DNA from: a virus
Reading direction: 5' to 3' (one strand)
DNA length: 5,582 nucleotides
Virus record (IMG/VR): IMGVR_UViG_3300009507_000007
Location: 1 to 5,582 of that record
In this document: in pieces, positions 1-5,582 of the stretch
Position numbering within the stretch: the first letter of the stretch is position 1
How the letters are laid out: each line of letters begins with the position of its first letter
Notes under the pieces: generated by a model
Told to the model about the DNA's origin: nothing
Seen by the model: the letters and a program-made list of their open reading frames with translations, nothing else
Database searches by the model: none
Program-made: the position numbers and the translations under genes

Positions 1-123
1 TCAACAAACCCAACGCTAAATGAAGACTTTTATTTATGTTCAGGTTTGCACAAAAAAGTATTTGCCGATCAAATATCAGACAGTTTTGAAATTACATGTC
101 TTACAGATATGTCGATTGTAGGA
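1..123. repeat. Terminal redundancy (copy 1), identical to 5460..5582; circular-assembly overlap
   Basis: Manual base-by-base comparison gives 123/123 identity with the last 123 nt of the window. Confidence 0.97.
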
Positions 124-219
124 AACACCGTATTCGGTGCAGGTCTACAAGAAACTGATGCAACATCTGATTACGACACAATCACTTCACAAGTCGATTC
201 CTCGCGTATCGTTAAGTGA
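1..219 (+). CDS. Major capsid protein, 3' end (continues from 4011..5459 across the circular junction); stop TGA at 217..219
   Basis: Frame 1 is open from position 1 to TGA 217..219, and 1..123 duplicates 5460..5582 in the same frame. The joined ORF (4011..5459 plus 1..219) is 1668 nt, giving 555 aa. Confidence 0.85.
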   Translation, partial: STNPTLNEDFYLCSGLHKKVFADQISDSFEITCLTDMSIVGNTVFGAGLQETDATSDYDTITSQVDSSRIVK

Positions 220-223
220 TAAA

Positions 224-258
224 ATGCGGGGTAGCCCTCCCCTACCCCGCATATATTT
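224..258 (+). terminator. Intrinsic-terminator-like hairpin just downstream of the capsid gene
   Basis: Perfect 11-bp stem ATGCGGGGTAG (224..234) pairs with CTACCCCGCAT (242..252), with a 7-nt loop CCCTCCC. It is followed by ATATTT. The T tract is short and interrupted, so termination is likely partial. Confidence 0.6.
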
Positions 259-273
259 AAAAAGGAAAATGAA

Positions 274-798
274 ATGAACAGAATTAAACACGGCAATATA
301 AATAAATGGTCACAAGCAAAAGCGGGCGACGTAATTGAATTTGCATCAAGCAAACCAAGACATGTAAAGTTTGAAGTAACTGCAAACAGTAATATCGAAT
401 TATGGGTTGCAAACGACAACAAAATGTCTGACGCCGTATTGGTGGGAACATCAAACGGAAAAACAGAAATTCAATATACAGCACCCGCCACAACGTATGT
501 GCAAATTAAAGCTGAAAAATCAGCGGCAGTATTTGTAAATATACCAGATATCGATCAATCAGTACAAAATAGCGATGAACCTAGCTACACGTCTATCGAG
601 CCACGTGTAAACAACAGCACTGAATTTGATCGAATGGTTGCATTTATGAAACACAACGAAACGCAACGTAATGCACAATTAGAAGCTGAAAGATCAGCTT
701 TAAGAGCAGAAGTAGCAAAAATTAAAGCAGAAGCTGAAACAGTAGTTGAAGCGCCACAAGAGGCAGAAACAGAAGATGCAGGAGAAACCCCCGAGTAA
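274..798 (+). CDS. Hypothetical structural or assembly protein, 174 aa (possibly scaffold-like or decoration); function unknown
   Basis: ATG at 274 is preceded by AAGGA (262..266) at 7-nt spacing. The ORF fills the gap between capsid and peptidase. The N-terminal ~95 aa looks beta-rich. The C-terminal ~60 aa is heptad-like and helical with an acidic tail (AQLEAERSALRAEVAKIKAEAETVVEAPQEAETEDAGETPE). Confidence 0.75.
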   Translation: MNRIKHGNINKWSQAKAGDVIEFASSKPRHVKFEVTANSNIELWVANDNKMSDAVLVGTSNGKTEIQYTAPATTYVQIKAEKSAAVFVNIPDIDQSVQNSDEPSYTSIEPRVNNSTEFDRMVAFMKHNETQRNAQLEAERSALRAEVAKIKAEAETVVEAPQEAETEDAGETPE

Positions 799-1312
799 GT
801 TTCTACGCTGGATACGGTTTATAGACCGTATCCAGTTTTGGCACCGTGATGAACTGGTGCATAAAACACACGTAGAAGCGGCAAGATCATTAGCAGAACC
901 TAATGCATCAAAATCACTCTGGGTTAAAATTCAGCAAACAGAAAACGATTATGTAGGGGTACATCCCGATATAATTGAGTTTTGGAAAGCATTTTCCAAA
1001 GCAATGAAGCGACGGAATATACCAATCCGAGCGTTTGAATTTGTACGGTCTGCAGAACGACAACAAGAGTTATTTGATAAAGGCAGAAGCAAAGCATCTG
1101 CCGGATTTGGAGCACATCAGTACGGAATGGCCGTGGATATTATTCACGCAACCCGTGGTTGGAATTTAAGTAAAAAAGAGTGGGATTGCATGGTTGCAAT
1201 CGGCAAAGAAGTTGCACGCAAACGCAATATTAAATTGGACTCAGGACATGATTGGAATTTCTGGGACCCAGCTCATTGGGAAATAGACAATTGGCAAGAC
1301 CAAATCAAATAA
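776..1312 (+). CDS. Zinc metallopeptidase, M15 family (VanY / L-alanyl-D-glutamate peptidase-like); probable peptidoglycan hydrolase (endolysin)
   Basis: Motifs read in translation: RSAERQQELF, then H-x6-D as HQYGMAVD (H at 1115..1117, D at 1136..1138), then the distal His in DPAHWE (H at 1274..1276). This is the His/Asp/His zinc triad arrangement of M15 peptidases. The start is uncertain. The track uses TTG at 746, the first ATG is 776 (AAGAGG 12 nt upstream), and GTG at 857 lies downstream of the hairpin. No N-terminal hydrophobic signal sequence is present. Confidence 0.87.
   Translation: MQEKPPSKFLRWIRFIDRIQFWHRDELVHKTHVEAARSLAEPNASKSLWVKIQQTENDYVGVHPDIIEFWKAFSKAMKRRNIPIRAFEFVRSAERQQELFDKGRSKASAGFGAHQYGMAVDIIHATRGWNLSKKEWDCMVAIGKEVARKRNIKLDSGHDWNFWDPAHWEIDNWQDQIK
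808..840 (+). terminator. Intrinsic-terminator-like hairpin 10 nt after the stop of the 174-aa ORF, located inside the 5' part of the peptidase reading frame
   Basis: Stem CTGGATACGGT (808..818) pairs with ACCGTATCCAG (825..835), 11 bp, with a ~6-nt loop. It is immediately followed by TTTTG (836..840). Confidence 0.55.
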
Positions 1313-1318
1313 AAAACA

Positions 1319-1336
1319 GTAAGTTGAATAACTTAC
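1319..1336 (+). other. Small stem-loop directly after the peptidase stop
   Basis: GTAAGTT (1319..1325), loop GAAT, AACTTAC (1330..1336), giving a 7-bp stem. No downstream T tract, so it is not a canonical terminator. Confidence 0.3.
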
Positions 1337-1340
1337 ACAA

Positions 1341-1383
1341 GGCAAACGGAACGGAAACTCCAAGTATTGGAGTTCCGTTTGCC
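1341..1383 (+). other. Large imperfect hairpin with two alternative foldings in the peptidase-Rep spacer; candidate replication origin or primosome signal, or an RNA structure
   Basis: GGCAAACGGAAC (1341..1352) is the exact reverse complement of GTTCCGTTTGCC (1372..1383), a 12-bp stem. Alternatively AACTCCA (1356..1362) pairs with TGGAGTT (1368..1374), extended by AACGG (1350..1354) with CCGTT (1375..1379) around a bulged A. The duplicated CGGAA allows this register slippage. Confidence 0.5.
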
Positions 1384-1452
1384 GACCAGATATCCCTACC
1401 CTTGTTAAGATATGCATTTAGTGACACCAAACTACAGGAACAGCAGTAAATT

Positions 1453-2487
1453 ATGTGCATAGCACCAGTAAAATTAGATGATGGGACGGAAGTTGGGTGT
1501 CGCGAATGCTGGCAATGCCGCAAACGTAGAGTTAACGATTACGTTGGAAGATGCATTGCCGAAAGTAAGTTTTCGAAAAAAACTTACGCTGTAACATTAA
1601 CGTATAACGGAGACCAAGGCGTTAATGCAGTAACGTTAATTTATAAAGACGTTCAGGATTTTCTTAAAAGACTGCGTAAAAAACATAAATGTCGTTACAT
1701 CGTTACCGGAGAATACGGTAGCGCAAAAGGACGCTCACATTGGCATATAATACTATTCTTTAAGGATAGTTGGCCAGAAGTGACGTCAAACAAAAGGGTA
1801 GATTGGAAATATTGGAAACATGGTTTCAGTTATTTTCAAGAACCGGATTGGAAAGGTTTTGAATATTGCCTGAAATATGTTCTGAAAGATCAGACATCAA
1901 GGCAAAGTGATAGCCATTTGGCTATGAGCAAAAAACCACCACTAGGCCACGAGTTTTTTCAACAGTTAGCGAAGCAACACGTTGAACAAGCCCTCGTCCC
2001 ACAAACATATTTTTATAAGTTTGGCGACGTAAGGGATTATAAAAACAGAGAAAAAGGGTTTATGATGCAAGGAAAAACAAGAGAAAATTTTATGGAAACT
2101 TTTGTCAAAGAGTGGGAGGATAGATACTCTCACGAACCGTTATCGGAATTAGTAACAGATTATTACGACGATATAACGGAAATAGAGTACACGGACGAAG
2201 AACTGTACGAAAGATTGCATTATCAACCTGTAAAATATGTAGAACCATGGATCGAAGGACAAGGAGACGGAATATTTAAAGATATAGAATTAGTAGAAGC
2301 AACGTATGACGGAATACCAATATGTTATTGGGATAATAAAAACAAAACAGGCATACATATAGTGACGGAGAACGACGAATGGCACGAAGAAAGACCCGAA
2401 GTAATAAAAACAATAAAACAAGGACAACAAATACAACGACGGCGATCCTACGCCGAAGTACAGTACGCGGAATTGGACGAAATATAG
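1453..2487 (+). CDS. Rolling-circle replication initiator protein (HUH endonuclease; Microviridae gene A / VP4-like), 344 aa
   Basis: N-terminal Cys cluster MCIAP...GCRECWQCRKRR. Motif I is AVTLTY. Motif II (HUH) is SHWHIILF, with HWH at 1738..1746. Motif III is the double-Tyr EYCLKYVLK (from 1864), which matches the Y-x-x-K-Y-x-x-K pattern of the phiX174 A protein active site. Confidence 0.93.
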   Translation: MCIAPVKLDDGTEVGCRECWQCRKRRVNDYVGRCIAESKFSKKTYAVTLTYNGDQGVNAVTLIYKDVQDFLKRLRKKHKCRYIVTGEYGSAKGRSHWHIILFFKDSWPEVTSNKRVDWKYWKHGFSYFQEPDWKGFEYCLKYVLKDQTSRQSDSHLAMSKKPPLGHEFFQQLAKQHVEQALVPQTYFYKFGDVRDYKNREKGFMMQGKTRENFMETFVKEWEDRYSHEPLSELVTDYYDDITEIEYTDEELYERLHYQPVKYVEPWIEGQGDGIFKDIELVEATYDGIPICYWDNKNKTGIHIVTENDEWHEERPEVIKTIKQGQQIQRRRSYAEVQYAELDEI

Positions 2488-2681
2488 AAATATATAGTCC
2501 ACCCGATGAACAACGGGAGCGAACAGCCGCACCACCTCCCGAACGGGATCTAGCGAAGCGGAAAAAATCCCCGAAAAACTTTACGGTCAGAGATCTGCGG
2601 ATAAGGTGTAAGGACAGACCCAAAAAAAACACCCCTACTGGGGGATCAGGGTCTAAAAAAACATTTGTACCTTGGTGTTAA
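2379..2681 (+). CDS. Candidate overlapping gene: highly basic, low-complexity 100-aa protein (possible DNA-binding or packaging protein); uncertain
   Basis: ATG at 2379 has GGAG (2367..2370) 8 nt upstream. It overlaps the last 109 nt of Rep in a different frame and then occupies the otherwise unassigned 2488..2681. By hand count it has about 28 K/R and about 8 D/E. Caveat: this stretch is T-poor, so long stop-free frames arise by composition alone. Confidence 0.4.
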   Translation: MARRKTRSNKNNKTRTTNTTTAILRRSTVRGIGRNIEIYSPPDEQRERTAAPPPERDLAKRKKSPKNFTVRDLRIRCKDRPKKNTPTGGSGSKKTFVPWC

Positions 2682-2842
2682 AAGTAAAAAAATGATACAT
2701 TTTTAAAAAAAGTGCTTTACATTTACAAATGTACAAAGCTATAAAAACGTATGGGTCAACACAACGAGTCTCATAATGGTATCATAATATATATTATCGG
2801 CCATTGAGCGTTTTGACCCTTCTATAAAAGAAGGAGTAAAAA
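2682..2842 (+). promoter_or_regulatory. Main AT-rich non-coding region with repeated TACATTT/AAATGTA motifs and promoter-like hexamers
   Basis: No credible ORF lies here. TACATTT occurs at 2696..2702 and 2718..2724, ACATTTGTA at 2661..2669, and its inverted copy TACAAATGT at 2724..2732. TCATAAT is duplicated at 2771..2777 and 2782..2788. The region sits directly upstream of the coupled gene block that starts at 2843. Confidence 0.4.
2716..2745 (+). promoter_or_regulatory. Candidate sigma70-like promoter (TTTACA - 18 nt - TATAAA)
   Basis: The -35-like TTTACA is at 2716..2721 and the -10-like TATAAA at 2740..2745, with an 18-nt spacer. It overlaps the TACATTT/AAATGTA palindrome and would drive the 2843..219 gene block. 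Confidence 0.25.
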
Positions 2843-3022
2843 TTGCAATTACTACTAATTAAACAAATTCTAAAACCGATTATCACTAGATGTGGTACTA
2901 TGCTTGGCGCTTCGCTTGCGGGCGCAGGAATAGCAGTTGGTACAACTGAAAGTATCGTTTTGGGATTTACCGCTTTAGCGGGAGTATCGATAGACCTCAT
3001 AACACGGAGGTGGATCAAATGA
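2843..3022 (+). CDS. Unlisted small hydrophobic protein, 59 aa, TTG start; candidate holin-like membrane protein
   Basis: A perfect AAGGAG (2831..2836) lies 6 nt upstream of TTG 2843, and an in-frame TAA precedes at 2837..2839. Translation: (M)QLLLIKQILKPIITRCGTMLGASLAGAGIAVGTTESIVLGFTALAGVSIDLITRRWIK. It has two Gly/Ala-rich hydrophobic stretches and a positively charged C-terminus. The stop TGA (3020..3022) overlaps the next ATG as ATGA. At 59 aa it is one residue below the track cutoff. Confidence 0.55.
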   Translation: MQLLLIKQILKPIITRCGTMLGASLAGAGIAVGTTESIVLGFTALAGVSIDLITRRWIK

Positions 3023-3114
3023 AATTAAAAGACATCATAATAGCAACGATAGCGGGAATAGTAATGGGTTTAGCCCTATTCTCGGATACATTGTTAAATG
3101 CGGGAGTTATATAA
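3019..3114 (+). CDS. Unlisted small single-pass membrane protein, 31 aa
   Basis: GGAGGTG (3006..3012) lies 6 nt upstream of ATG 3019. Translation: MKLKDIIIATIAGIVMGLALFSDTLLNAGVI, with a charged N-terminus followed by a ~17-residue hydrophobic helix. The start overlaps the upstream stop (ATGA), and the stop TAA (3112..3114) is 1 nt before the ATG at 3116. Confidence 0.55.
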   Translation: MKLKDIIIATIAGIVMGLALFSDTLLNAGVI

Positions 3115-3115
3115 T

Positions 3116-3946
3116 ATGTGGGGAGCAATAGCCACAGCGGCAATAGGCGCATTAGGCGCACGCAAAACAGCAAAAGCTATGCAAGGAGCAAATGATTTAG
3201 ATTTAGCTAAATTAAGACGCGAAGCAGAGCAAAATGGGTTTAACCCATTAACAGTACTACGAGCAACAGGCGGTCAAGGTAGTACAAAAGGCCCATCTGG
3301 CAATTTAGCCAGTGGGGCATTTTTTCAAACATTTGCACAAGGAATACCAAGTATACTTGAATCAAATTACAATAAAAAAATGAAACAAGCACAGCTTGCA
3401 AATGTTAACGCAAGTACAGAAAATTTGTTAGCAAGTGCAAAATCAATGTCAGGACAAAGTTCTGCAAACGATTTTATTGAAAAACATGCAGTACCAATGT
3501 TAGTTCCAATCACAACAGGTGGTATGGAAGGTAAGCAAAAAGTACTATATATGGGTATAAACCCAGAATTAATGGAAACCCAATTAAGCGAAGCAATGGG
3601 TTCAATGATAGTACAGGGTTTACAATATTCATATCAAAATGGTGTACCTGCATCTGGTTTTACAAAATTAATAAAGGGGTTACCCCCTGCCCTAAAAAAA
3701 TCATTAAACAATATTATGGGTGAATTTGAAAAAACAGGAAAAATACCAACACAGGCACAAATTACAAAAGCATTAGCATCTGAATTTACTGGCCAACAGT
3801 TAGACAGATCGTTGCAACAATTTGAGGCATTAATTGGACACCAACGTAAGAAACCAAAGTTGGAAAGTGAACCTGATTACTACAGTAAAATATCAGGTGT
3901 GCCAATAAATCAGCAACAAAAAATTATGGAAGAATTATTTCCATAA
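3116..3946 (+). CDS. DNA pilot / minor capsid protein (Microviridae VP2 / gene H-like), 276 aa from ATG 3116 (track start 3098 is an alternative)
   Basis: The N-terminus MWGAIATAAIGALGARK is Gly/Ala-rich and hydrophobic. It is followed by AKLRREAEQNGFNPLTVL, which resembles the AGLNPML-type segment I recall from gokushovirus VP2 proteins. Size and position next to the capsid gene also fit. GGGAG (3102..3106) lies 9 nt upstream of ATG 3116, whereas ATG 3098 has no SD and lies inside the 31-aa ORF. Confidence 0.72.
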   Translation: MWGAIATAAIGALGARKTAKAMQGANDLDLAKLRREAEQNGFNPLTVLRATGGQGSTKGPSGNLASGAFFQTFAQGIPSILESNYNKKMKQAQLANVNASTENLLASAKSMSGQSSANDFIEKHAVPMLVPITTGGMEGKQKVLYMGINPELMETQLSEAMGSMIVQGLQYSYQNGVPASGFTKLIKGLPPALKKSLNNIMGEFEKTGKIPTQAQITKALASEFTGQQLDRSLQQFEALIGHQRKKPKLESEPDYYSKISGVPINQQQKIMEELFP

Positions 3947-4014
3947 TGTGCGCCAAGTGTAAAAAAATACGAAAAATTATAACTAAAATCATTGCAAGGA
4001 GAAAACGCAAATGA
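3946..4014 (+). CDS. Unlisted 22-aa extremely basic micro-ORF (MCAKCKKIRKIITKIIARRKRK); candidate J-like DNA-binding/packaging peptide
   Basis: The ATG 3946..3948 overlaps the pilot stop TAA 3944..3946 (TAATG). Its stop TGA 4012..4014 overlaps the capsid ATG 4011..4013 (ATGA). It exactly fills the pilot-capsid spacer. It has 11 of 22 residues K/R, no acidic residues and a CxxC motif. Its position immediately upstream of the capsid gene mirrors phiX174 gene J upstream of gene F. Confidence 0.55.
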   Translation: MCAKCKKIRKIITKIIARRKRK

Positions 4015-5582
4015 GAATGACTGAACTAATACCAAACAGCCCGATTGCTGTACAGAAATCGCGCCGATCTGCAAAAGGTCGAGTATTGACGTCAGGCGAT
4101 GCAGGAAAAATCCTGCCGTTGAAATACGAATGGCTACACCGTGAAGACGGCGTGCAAAGCGGTAAAATCCGCATGAACGTTGAAATGATGGAAACATCAG
4201 AAATGTTAATGAATGGTGTTGGCGTAACATTGTACGCTCATTTCGTCCCAATGTTAGCATTTGATCGTTTTAACGGATCAATGGACGAATTAAACCGATC
4301 ATATAAAAAAGAAAATGGCGCAGCAGGATCTATAGTACCATTTTTTGAAAGTAATAAGGCTTATTATGAACCTACAGGTAGCGTTTCAAATAATAGTCCG
4401 GGATACGCTCAAATGTATGATACAAATGACGATCACAAGACAAAAACTTTTTATCAAACAATGGGTATTCATACTGAAGCAACATCTTTTAATTCAACAA
4501 TAGTTGAAGCATATAATACAATTGTTAATCATAGACGCAAGGCACGATCAAAATCGTTACCATTAAGAAACGTATTTGATCATAGTTTAGCCGACGCGTT
4601 TTGGATTAATAATGGAATGCAAAATATTGTTCCAGATTATGATCAAAATTTAATTGACGGACAAGTTACACTTGCCGGACTTACATTTCAGGCACCAATT
4701 AAAGCACCTAAATATTTAAGTGATTCAGGTTGGGGTACAGCAACAAATAATGATGCTGTATCAGGAAATGCAATATCACCAGGTATGACTGCTTCAGACG
4801 TAGTAGATCAAGGTGATATGTATTTATTTGATGAAATGTACGCTGAATTAACTACTGGCGGGAACGCAACAATGTCATTAGCTGACATTGAACAAGCACG
4901 TAAAACAGCGGCCTTTGCTAAGTTAAGAGCAAAGTATGATGGTATTGACGACGAACACGTAATTGATTTGCTTATGTCAGGAATTAGAGTTCCTGAAGAG
5001 GCATTAAAGCAACCAATATTATTGGGTCGTCAACGTGCAATGATAGGATTTAACCAACGTTATGCCACAGATGGCGCAAACTTGGATAAGTCAGCAACAA
5101 ATGGTATGGCAACAATTGACATGTCAATTAGAACACCAGCTATGAATACTGGCGGCGTTATAATGATAACTGCCGAAATAGTGCCAGAACAACTTTGGGA
5201 ACGTAAGAAAGATTATTTCTTATATACAACAGATCCAGATACGTTACCAAACTATCTTTCTGATGTATTAGACCCAGAAAAAGTGTCAGTTGTAAAAAAT
5301 GACCACGCTGACGTAAATCACGCAACACCAGATGGAACATTTGGTTATGCACCACTTAACCACCAATGGCAAAGAGATGCGGTAAATGTAGGTGGTAAAT
5401 ATTACCGTCCTGCAAATGACGCATTTGATGAAGACCGTGCAAAAATTTGGACGGCTGAATCAACAAACCCAACGCTAAATGAAGACTTTTATTTATGTTC
5501 AGGTTTGCACAAAAAAGTATTTGCCGATCAAATATCAGACAGTTTTGAAATTACATGTCTTACAGATATGTCGATTGTAGGA
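4011..5582 (+). CDS. Major capsid protein (Microviridae F / VP1-like), 5' portion; runs off the window end and continues at position 124 via the circular junction (555 aa total)
   Basis: AAGGAG (3996..4001) lies 9 nt upstream of ATG 4011. The frame is open to the window end, verified by hand translation. It is the largest gene of the genome. The N-terminal pattern G-K-I-L-P-L ... YAHFVPMLAF parallels the G-x-L-x-P ... F-x-VP-x-R arrangement near the N-terminus of microvirus capsid proteins. It is absent from the ORF track only because it has no in-window stop. Confidence 0.85.
   Translation, partial: MRMTELIPNSPIAVQKSRRSAKGRVLTSGDAGKILPLKYEWLHREDGVQSGKIRMNVEMMETSEMLMNGVGVTLYAHFVPMLAFDRFNGSMDELNRSYKKENGAAGSIVPFFESNKAYYEPTGSVSNNSPGYAQMYDTNDDHKTKTFYQTMGIHTEATSFNSTIVEAYNTIVNHRRKARSKSLPLRNVFDHSLADAFWINNGMQNIVPDYDQNLIDGQVTLAGLTFQAPIKAPKYLSDSGWGTATNNDAVSGNAISPGMTASDVVDQGDMYLFDEMYAELTTGGNATMSLADIEQARKTAAFAKLRAKYDGIDDEHVIDLLMSGIRVPEEALKQPILLGRQRAMIGFNQRYATDGANLDKSATNGMATIDMSIRTPAMNTGGVIMITAEIVPEQLWERKKDYFLYTTDPDTLPNYLSDVLDPEKVSVVKNDHADVNHATPDGTFGYAPLNHQWQRDAVNVGGKYYRPANDAFDEDRAKIWTAESTNPTLNEDFYLCSGLHKKVFADQISDSFEITCLTDMSIVG
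5460..5582. repeat. Terminal redundancy (copy 2), identical to 1..123
   Basis: Same comparison. Position 5460 is a codon start of the capsid ORF and position 1 continues the same frame. Confidence 0.97.

Follow-up and report, generated by a model that had tools for sequence, protein, structure and literature searches.

Class II holins and the pinholin S21 68 of phage 21 are small proteins with two hydrophobic segments, the first weak and rich in Gly and Ala, and a basic cytoplasmic C terminus. Two-component holins, such as mycobacteriophage Ms6 Gp4/Gp5 and PBSX XhlA/XhlB, are encoded by adjacent genes for small membrane proteins. In the microvirus family, the only experimentally defined lysis factor is phiX174 E (Roux 2012). 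Since 2012, M15 peptidases have been described from many microviruses, and the peptidoglycan hydrolase of Ebor was verified biochemically in 2025 (PMC11980548). For the Roseobacter phages of the CRPss series, the M15 peptidase was named as the likely lysis gene, with no mention of a holin or membrane protein (PMC11499846). The microvirus literature that we found names no holin, nor any factor that lets signal-less enzymes cross the inner membrane. Here we analyzed a microvirus genome contained in a 5,582-nucleotide stretch of DNA (the window; IMG/VR record IMGVR_UViG_3300009507_000007, positions 1 to 5,582), in which two small open reading frames (ORFs), smORF-A and smORF-B, lie immediately upstream of the gene for the DNA pilot protein. 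Both prove to be real genes that are under selection and encode small membrane proteins. On balance, and from sequence comparison and structure prediction, we favor smORF-A as a class-II-like holin for the signal-less M15 endopeptidase of the same genome, with smORF-B as its partner in the membrane.

The two genes and their translation signals, read directly from the sequence, are as follows.
2831–2836, + strand: Shine–Dalgarno (SD) sequence AAGGAG of smORF-A, 6 nt before the TTG at 2843 and kept in nearly all close loci
2843–3022, + strand: smORF-A, 59 residues with a TTG start, a predicted helical-hairpin membrane protein and holin candidate
3006–3012, + strand: SD sequence GGAGGTG of smORF-B, within the 3′ end of smORF-A and 6 nt before the ATG at 3019
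3019–3114, + strand: smORF-B, 31 residues with an ATG start and a TAA stop (3112–3114), a single-pass membrane peptide

The TGA of smORF-A and the ATG of smORF-B share an ATGA (3019–3022), and a single base separates the smORF-B stop codon from the pilot ATG at 3116. The mini ORFs, SD sites, 6-nt spacers and stop/start overlap were all found where a first-pass annotation, made from the letters of the window, had placed them. Its claim that these are the best ribosome-binding sites in the genome does not hold, as the capsid gene also has an AAGGAG (3996–4001), 9 nt before its ATG at 4011. The description of both ORFs as unannotated is right in part: the CRPss records of Roseobacter phages carry smORF-A homologues under the label hypothetical protein, and smORF-B is annotated among those records in CRPss-251 only but is listed as a hypothetical protein in JGI/IMG. 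Two start codons deserve mention. An in-frame GTG three codons before the smORF-B ATG (window 3010–3021) would yield MDQM-KLKD and is replaced by ATG in L057, L058, L034, L037 and L038; a dual-start motif could exist here, but this codon is probably unused because it is located inside the SD sequence. In L046, the smORF-A frame (5039–5215) is intact, yet no ATG, GTG or TTG occurs near its N terminus (…KINYLLLK…), which suggests a non-canonical start codon.

A Rep scan of IMG/VR recovered 38 related loci, and later scans brought the total to more than 150. smORF-A and smORF-B are intact, constant in length and in register, with the ATGA overlap kept, in all of the close loci that cover the region (30/30). 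In relatives at ~40% identity (the CRPss phages, L033 and L035), A has 61–64 residues and B 30–31, with overlapping stop and start codons. The ratio of nonsynonymous to synonymous substitution rates (dN/dS, NG86) in frame is 0.03–0.23 for smORF-A and at most 0.24 for smORF-B, against values >1 in most comparisons for the remaining two reading frames. Variable sites are distributed over codon positions 1, 2 and 3 as 25/7/44 in smORF-A and 15/4/22 in smORF-B, and the CRPss clade, checked as a second clade, gave the same selection picture. Kept upstream of the pilot gene in relatives and evolving at dN/dS 0.03–0.24, the frames came through the conservation and purifying-selection check that had been proposed for them.

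When 1.84 billion proteins were searched with a smORF-A profile at E ≤ 1e-3, the matches comprised 457 representatives of 50%-identity clusters, almost all of them 57–70 residues long. All contexts inspected were contigs of microvirus size in which the genes ran A-(B)-pilot-capsid-~165-residue ORF-M15/VanY-Rep; among these contexts, the family was found only in Occultatumvirinae/'Family 7' microviruses and always shortly before the pilot gene. The GenBank phages matching smORF-A are microviruses only (Tortoise, Flyfo and CRPss), with all of the matches annotated as hypothetical, and a scan of bacterial genomes with the single protein P0053 found no smORF-A homologue. The family signature starts with an amphipathic N terminus of ~10 residues, an invariant Pro and an R-R-x-G-T motif, continues as a weakly hydrophobic small-residue stretch (12–19 residues) up to a conserved Gly and an acidic/polar loop, and closes with a hydrophobic helix of ~18 residues bearing a near-invariant D-L, S-H-x-x-R and basic residues. 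An AlphaFold2 (AF2) model contains a helix at residues 2–26, a turn at the conserved Gly and a helix at residues 31–57 (pLDDT 83). In Kyte–Doolittle and Hessa-type window scans, segment 2 is moderately hydrophobic (Kyte–Doolittle 17-residue mean ~2.0) and segment 1 is weak (15-residue mean ~1.5). The charge pattern fits a predicted positive-inside hairpin with both termini in the cytoplasm (N-in/C-in), the number of transmembrane (TM) segments being uncertain.

Several of these features are those by which holins are recognized. By hydropathy and AF2, smORF-A is a small protein of 59 residues with at least one TM domain, and its C terminus is hydrophilic and positive (TRRWIK in the window; S-H-x-x-R followed by K/R in the family consensus). 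The Gly/Ala-type segments of the window protein, GTMLGASLAGAGIAVGT and IVLGFTALAGVSIDLI, and this cationic tail are as first described. With class II holins and S21 68, smORF-A shares the small size, two hydrophobic segments, a probable N-in/C-in topology, the Gly/Ala-rich weak segment 1 and the basic C terminus. It differs from them in having no dual-start motif and no sequence similarity, and from S21 68 in that its partner enzyme has no signal-anchor-release (SAR) domain, so that a nanometre-scale pinhole would be insufficient.

The closest likeness to a named holin family was found at the profile level. A Pfam scan of 50 diverse smORF-A members gave one recurrent family, PF23987 (Phage_holin_10, which groups gp28 of cyanophage Pam3 with other putative holins from Bosea-type prophages), matched in register by 14 of the 50 (best E 1.6e-4), all below threshold; the six matching members scored in detail reached 12–17 bits, against a gathering threshold of 27 bits. 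None of 100 shuffled or reversed controls matched PF23987. When the smORF-A family was compared with 26 Pam3-gp28 relatives by hhalign, 54 columns were aligned end to end and in register (P = 6e-4), and cross-family hidden Markov model (HMM) medians were +4.0 and +5.8 bits versus −0.6 and +0.2 for composition-matched shuffles. Because the controls do not match and the HMM scores exceed those of the shuffles, the similarity is order-specific, but it is too weak to serve as proof of homology.

The layouts of the two proteins also correspond. Like Pam3 gp28 and other Phage_holin_10 proteins, smORF-A has an amphipathic N-terminal helix with a basic pair, a weak small-residue segment running to a Gly turn, an acidic/polar loop, a hydrophobic helix and an RRK-type basic stretch in a predicted helix-turn-helix, and AF2 models gp28 with the same N-terminal order of helix, Gly turn and helix as smORF-A. 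The partner enzyme is in both cases an M15-family peptidase: in Pam3, gp28 follows a lytic enzyme with PG_binding_1 and Peptidase_M15_4 domains, and in an uncultured genome the gene preceding a gp28 relative encodes a PG_binding_1 protein. smORF-A differs from gp28 in lacking its ~35-residue C-terminal extension, in standing apart from its peptidase and in being confined to microviruses; it differs from Phage_holin_10 members in its sub-threshold scores, the window sequence itself matching nothing. A direct relationship between the window peptidase and Pam3 gp27 found no support in BLASTP (E 0.16), the two having only the Pfam clan in common.

The gene set of the window (~8 genes) lies entirely on the + strand, and the larger genes with which smORF-A has to be compared are the following.
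274–798, + strand: ORF174
776–1312, + strand: M15 peptidase (VanY/M15C-like, L-Ala-D-Glu endopeptidase-type), the proposed endolysin partner, with no signal peptide or TM segment
1453–2487, + strand: Rep
3116–3946, + strand: DNA pilot protein (VP2/H-like), with homology to the CRPss and Ebor pilots
4011 through the origin to 219, + strand: capsid gene, crossing the terminal junction

The peptidase resembles soluble L-Ala-D-Glu endopeptidase endolysins (M15C type) and ChiX, and an H-x6-D motif is visible. Its best Kyte–Doolittle window is 0.7 and its N terminus, MQEKPPSKFLRWIRFIDRIQFWHRDE..., is hydrophilic; hydropathy scans found no TM segment and no hydrophobic or signal-like N terminus, which bears out the earlier statement that the enzyme has no export signal. 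An endolysin that cannot export itself is what is looked for in the partner of a holin. An arrangement of the phage 21 type is not seen, as this endolysin carries no SAR domain; smORF-A as a pinholin partner of a SAR endolysin was accordingly rejected on the missing N-terminal hydrophobic segment, and the pinholin variant of the first-pass proposal is at odds with this peptidase. Lysis of the phiX174 E type, which proceeds without a muralytic enzyme, does not describe this genome either, the M15 peptidase being present.

smORF-A and the peptidase occur together in 82 genomes in which Rep, capsid and pilot were all found, the discordant cases being truncated contigs. Every complete peptidase-bearing genome of the lineage has smORF-A except L163 and L167, which softened the strict co-occurrence considered at first. 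CRPss-154 has neither smORF-A nor a recognisable peptidase; a search for close relatives of this peptidase-less phage found none, and the joint loss of both genes is that of one genome. Within the Occultatumvirinae, subgroups 6 and 7 are peptidase-less.

smORF-B consists of a short basic/polar head, a single TM helix and almost no tail, in line with the original description of a charged head (MKLKD) followed by one hydrophobic helix. The TM segment is clear, with a Kyte–Doolittle 17-residue mean of 2.5 and a Hessa-type sum of about −1.7 kcal/mol. B-like ORFs of 28–35 residues, often with an ALFGP motif, follow smORF-A in 83 of 98 loci. smORF-B is lineage-restricted, and in several non-marine lineages smORF-A abuts the pilot gene without it. 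No family was detectable for smORF-B, which gave no match in Pfam or PHROG scans. Among its variants, the B helix forms the C-terminal domain of a 91-residue protein, after a hydrophilic N-terminal domain of ~60 residues, in L059 (4709–4984) and L060 (2086–2361); the B ORF of L118 has an internal tandem duplication, with MWIKEIISGLSFGV present twice; and L063 (5049–5245) and L074 have two consecutive small TM ORFs. A spanin or lipoprotein was rejected, as smORF-B has no Cys and no periplasmic domain, with only ~3–10 residues after the TM helix in all variants. That smORF-B is a holin accessory we purely infer.

As a pair, smORF-A/B resemble Ms6 Gp4/Gp5 and PBSX XhlA/XhlB in being adjacent, co-expressed genes for small membrane proteins with a proposed joint role in making the hole. 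They are unlike those pairs in that B is a bare 31-residue TM helix, dispensable in many smORF-A-bearing lineages, and that the endolysin gene is far away; homology to those pairs was neither looked for nor seen. phiX174 E and K are likewise small microvirus membrane proteins, but they are overprinted genes in a genome with no muralytic enzyme, whereas smORF-A and smORF-B are stand-alone genes accompanied by an M15 peptidase.

One further element overlaps the smORF-A ribosome-binding site.
2818–2834, + strand: 6-bp hairpin CCTTCT / 5-nt loop / AGAAGG (2818–2823 paired with 2829–2834)

The 3′ arm of this hairpin takes in four of the six SD bases. Across 25 close loci, pairing is kept in 97% of cells with one G-U wobble; the covariation is thin, with one compensatory U-A to A-U swap (L018/L021), the 5′ arm being conserved and the flanks variable. 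The occluded SD sequence, together with the conserved TTG start, is suggestive, and only suggestive, of a deliberately limited translation of smORF-A, which would fit a toxic, dose-timed protein.

In the mechanism that we propose, smORF-A would adopt an N-in/C-in helical hairpin on insertion into the inner membrane, with a weak Gly/Ala-rich segment 1, a short acidic loop, a more hydrophobic helix 2 holding the near-invariant Asp, and a basic tail. It would accumulate slowly from its hairpin-locked SD and TTG start and, at a threshold, oligomerise into lesions through which the cytoplasmic, signal-less M15 L-Ala-D-Glu-type endopeptidase could reach the murein. smORF-B, made at a fixed ratio through ATGA coupling, would associate with smORF-A in the membrane and serve as a co-holin or a timing regulator. 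Topology, oligomerisation, hole size, the interaction of A and B, translational throttling and the role in lysis are all predicted here.

A number of observations weigh against a holin. No match from the smORF-A family reaches the 27-bit gathering score that membership of PF23987 takes, the hhalign alignment has a probability of only 28%, and the smORF-A of the window has no Pfam or PHROG match at E ≤ 1. A locus-scale scan with the smORF-A profile fails to separate the Pam3-type holin from background, and Pam3 gp28 is itself apparently a holin by annotation alone, no experimental test having been found in the literature. A Foldseek search of BFVD with the smORF-A model returned nothing at E ≤ 0.001; one 'Holin [Corticoviridae sp.]' appeared with an E of 0.9, a value that carries no information when the query is a helical hairpin. 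The protein is at the lower size limit of known holins with its 59 residues, segment 1 is short (~15–19 residues) and weak, and segment 2 contains an Asp; if pinholin-like, it would not release a soluble enzyme. The adjacency of a lysis cassette is missing, as Rep lies between the peptidase (776–1312) and smORF-A (2843–3022) in one direction around the circle, and pilot, capsid and ORF174 in the other, an order conserved in all relatives; adjacency is of little weight in a circular genome of 5.46 kb. L163 and L167 keep the peptidase without smORF-A, the co-occurrence of the two genes is largely phylogenetic, and smORF-B is absent from many smORF-A-bearing lineages. Of the holin pair put forward at first, what stands is that real membrane-protein genes, a signal-less peptidase and an order-specific holin-family similarity are present; the missing adjacency and the failure of the window smORF-A to match any holin model count against it.

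The position before the pilot gene is also occupied in genomes that lack smORF-A. In the more distant lineage of L163 and L167, an unrelated single-TM ORF of 35–51 residues abuts the pilot start in its place, and CRPss-154 has a 34-residue TM ORF and an 89-residue ORF before the pilot. The single-TM mini-ORFs in this slot are the following.
2221–2376 of L163
1941–2069 of L167
1657–1761 of L042
67–204 of L151

A small membrane protein is encoded at the front of the pilot-capsid block in every case, and at least three unrelated types occur there. Holins typically undergo non-orthologous replacement, and unrelated small TM ORFs in one slot give this pattern. Ebor, of the Tainavirinae, has a 45-residue membrane protein, Gp1 (TMHMM), and the 84-residue Gp2 before its pilot (PMC11980548), the same layout as in CRPss-154. 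The L163-type ORF shows no similarity to Ebor Gp1, and no Pfam family was found for the L163-type ORF, Gp1 or the CRPss-154 ORF. Gp1 is like smORF-A in standing at the head of the pilot-capsid block, here in a sister subfamily, and in a genome with a peptidoglycan hydrolase, verified by zymogram in Ebor; it is unlike smORF-A/B in sequence, in having a single TM segment and in having been assigned no function by its authors.

In recombination, smORF-A and smORF-B also form one module with Rep and the peptidase, to which the neighboring pilot gene does not belong. Between pairs of genomes in the close clade, the identity of smORF-A correlates with that of Rep (rho 0.59) and the peptidase (0.44) but does not follow that of the pilot (0.26) or capsid (0.23), and relatives have a recombination junction between smORF-B and the pilot gene. 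After the TAATATG at this junction, pilot N termini are unrelated (MWGAIA..., MGFGTKFR..., MGWKDELK... and MPEGQPYN...) despite near-identical A, B and Rep. The 5′ part of the pilot gene is mosaic in L014, L017, L019, L008 and others, with the first 80 pilot residues 47–98% identical. These mosaic N termini indicate that the B/pilot boundary is a recombination hot spot.

Among the alternatives to a holin, a non-lytic function of smORF-A, smORF-B or both fares best, although we consider it unlikely. The proteins would act in superinfection exclusion, in membrane anchoring of replication or assembly, or as a burst-size enhancer like phiX174 K, with the peptidase leaving the cell otherwise or acting at entry. 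Small non-lytic membrane proteins do exist in microviruses, phiX174 K being an example, and smORF-A is not adjacent to the peptidase. Also in favor of this reading, a trace of lysin was detected in Ebor virions (PMC11980548). Universal conservation and strong purifying selection in a genome of ~8 genes argue instead for an essential role; a non-lytic smORF-A would leave no candidate to export the signal-less muralytic enzyme and would not explain the holin-family similarity.

Next in probability, and again unlikely, is that smORF-A/B are accessories of the DNA pilot protein, either as a component inside the virion or of the entry channel or as a membrane chaperone by which the hydrophobic pilot N terminus would stay soluble or be targeted while the virion assembles. 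In ~100 genomes, smORF-A stands just before the pilot gene, or before B and then the pilot; translational coupling continues straight to the pilot start; and the pilot N terminus is, as the first-pass annotation had pointed out in raising a structural role, likewise Gly/Ala-rich and hydrophobic. That resemblance stands, but the role is weakened by the recombination junction between B and the pilot, by the lower correlation of smORF-A identity with the pilot than with Rep and the peptidase, and by L163/L167, CRPss-154 and Ebor, which retain homologous pilots without smORF-A. Mass spectrometry of Ebor virions found the capsid protein, the pilot, the basic Gp10 and a trace of the lysin Gp7 but not Gp1 (PMC11980548), although small hydrophobic peptides are easily missed and Ebor has no smORF-A homologue.

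Ranking third, and doubtful in our view, is that smORF-A or smORF-B lyses the cell as a single gene, by blocking cell-wall synthesis, or as a depolarising pinholin that collapses the proton motive force, with the M15 peptidase as an auxiliary. Small single-stranded DNA and RNA phages as a rule have small lysis proteins with a single TM segment (Roux 2012), and segment 1 of smORF-A is SAR-like in composition. The same genomes, however, conserve a muralytic enzyme, which without a SAR domain would not be activated by a pinhole alone, and neither smORF shows similarity to known single-gene lysis proteins. The weakest alternative, chance frames in an intergenic or regulatory region, is given next to no probability and is refuted by the conservation analysis: the window does hold many chance ORFs of 25–60 residues, but here frame, start and ATGA overlap are conserved, dN/dS separates the frames from most off-frame controls, and smORF-A belongs to a family of 457 clusters at 50% identity.

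The remainder of the genome gives the setting. A 122-base terminal redundancy (bases 1–122 equal 5461–5582) marks the window as a circularly permuted, complete circular genome of ~5.46 kb (~5460 bases). Its nearest GenBank records are the Roseobacter phages CRPss-151, -152 and -155, which have been placed in subgroup 11 of Occultatumvirinae/'Family 7' (PMC11499846). The other features are listed below.
226–251, + strand: perfect GC-rich hairpin GCGGGGTAGCCCTCCCCTACCCCGC, directly after the capsid stop codon
2379–2681, + strand: very basic ORF overprinted on the Rep 3′ end
2756–2785, + strand: sigma-70-like promoter match TCAACA-18-TATCAT with TG, from a consensus scan only, in the Rep-to-smORF-A intergenic region

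The hairpin at 226–251 may be a partial terminator or an RNA-stability element setting ORF174 and the peptidase apart from a highly expressed A-B-pilot-capsid block. The promoter match is a possible but weak candidate for the start of the smORF-A/B-pilot-capsid transcript, intergenic sigma-70-like matches being no more frequent than in shuffled sequence. The basic ORF (100 residues, MARRKTRSNK...KKTFVPWC) extends from the Rep 3′ end into the intergenic region, and its C-terminal [FY]VPWC motif is kept in CRPss-152, CRPss-154, L046, L163 and L167. Its counterparts lie at 915–1244 in CRPss-152 (L001), where only 1008–1244 is annotated, and at 843–1142 in CRPss-154 (L042). Its position corresponds to that of Ebor Gp10, which mass spectrometry found in the virion and for which a J/VP8-like role in neutralising DNA charge was proposed (PMC11980548).

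In this abundant group of marine viruses, small ORFs below the usual annotation cut-offs are thus core genes. Lysis in the Microviridae is understood only for phiX174 E, and a conserved candidate across hundreds of microvirus lineages would close this gap. If smORF-A and smORF-B act as we favor, 5-kb single-stranded DNA phages run a multi-component lysis program in the style of tailed phages, and a 59-residue protein with a 31-residue partner would offer a very small model holin. A fuller version, which we consider rather unlikely, joins these points: smORF-A and smORF-B, 90 residues together, would form the smallest holin/regulator pair known in nature, with a Gly/Ala-rich, releasable (SAR-like) first helix in A, B as a dedicated antiholin within the membrane, and the SD hairpin and TTG start as a timer. 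If that is true, microviruses captured a holin-endolysin cassette of the tailed-phage type, related to Pam3 gp27/gp28, and then split it genome-wide, and the position ahead of the pilot gene is a hot spot at which unrelated holins replace one another in microviruses.

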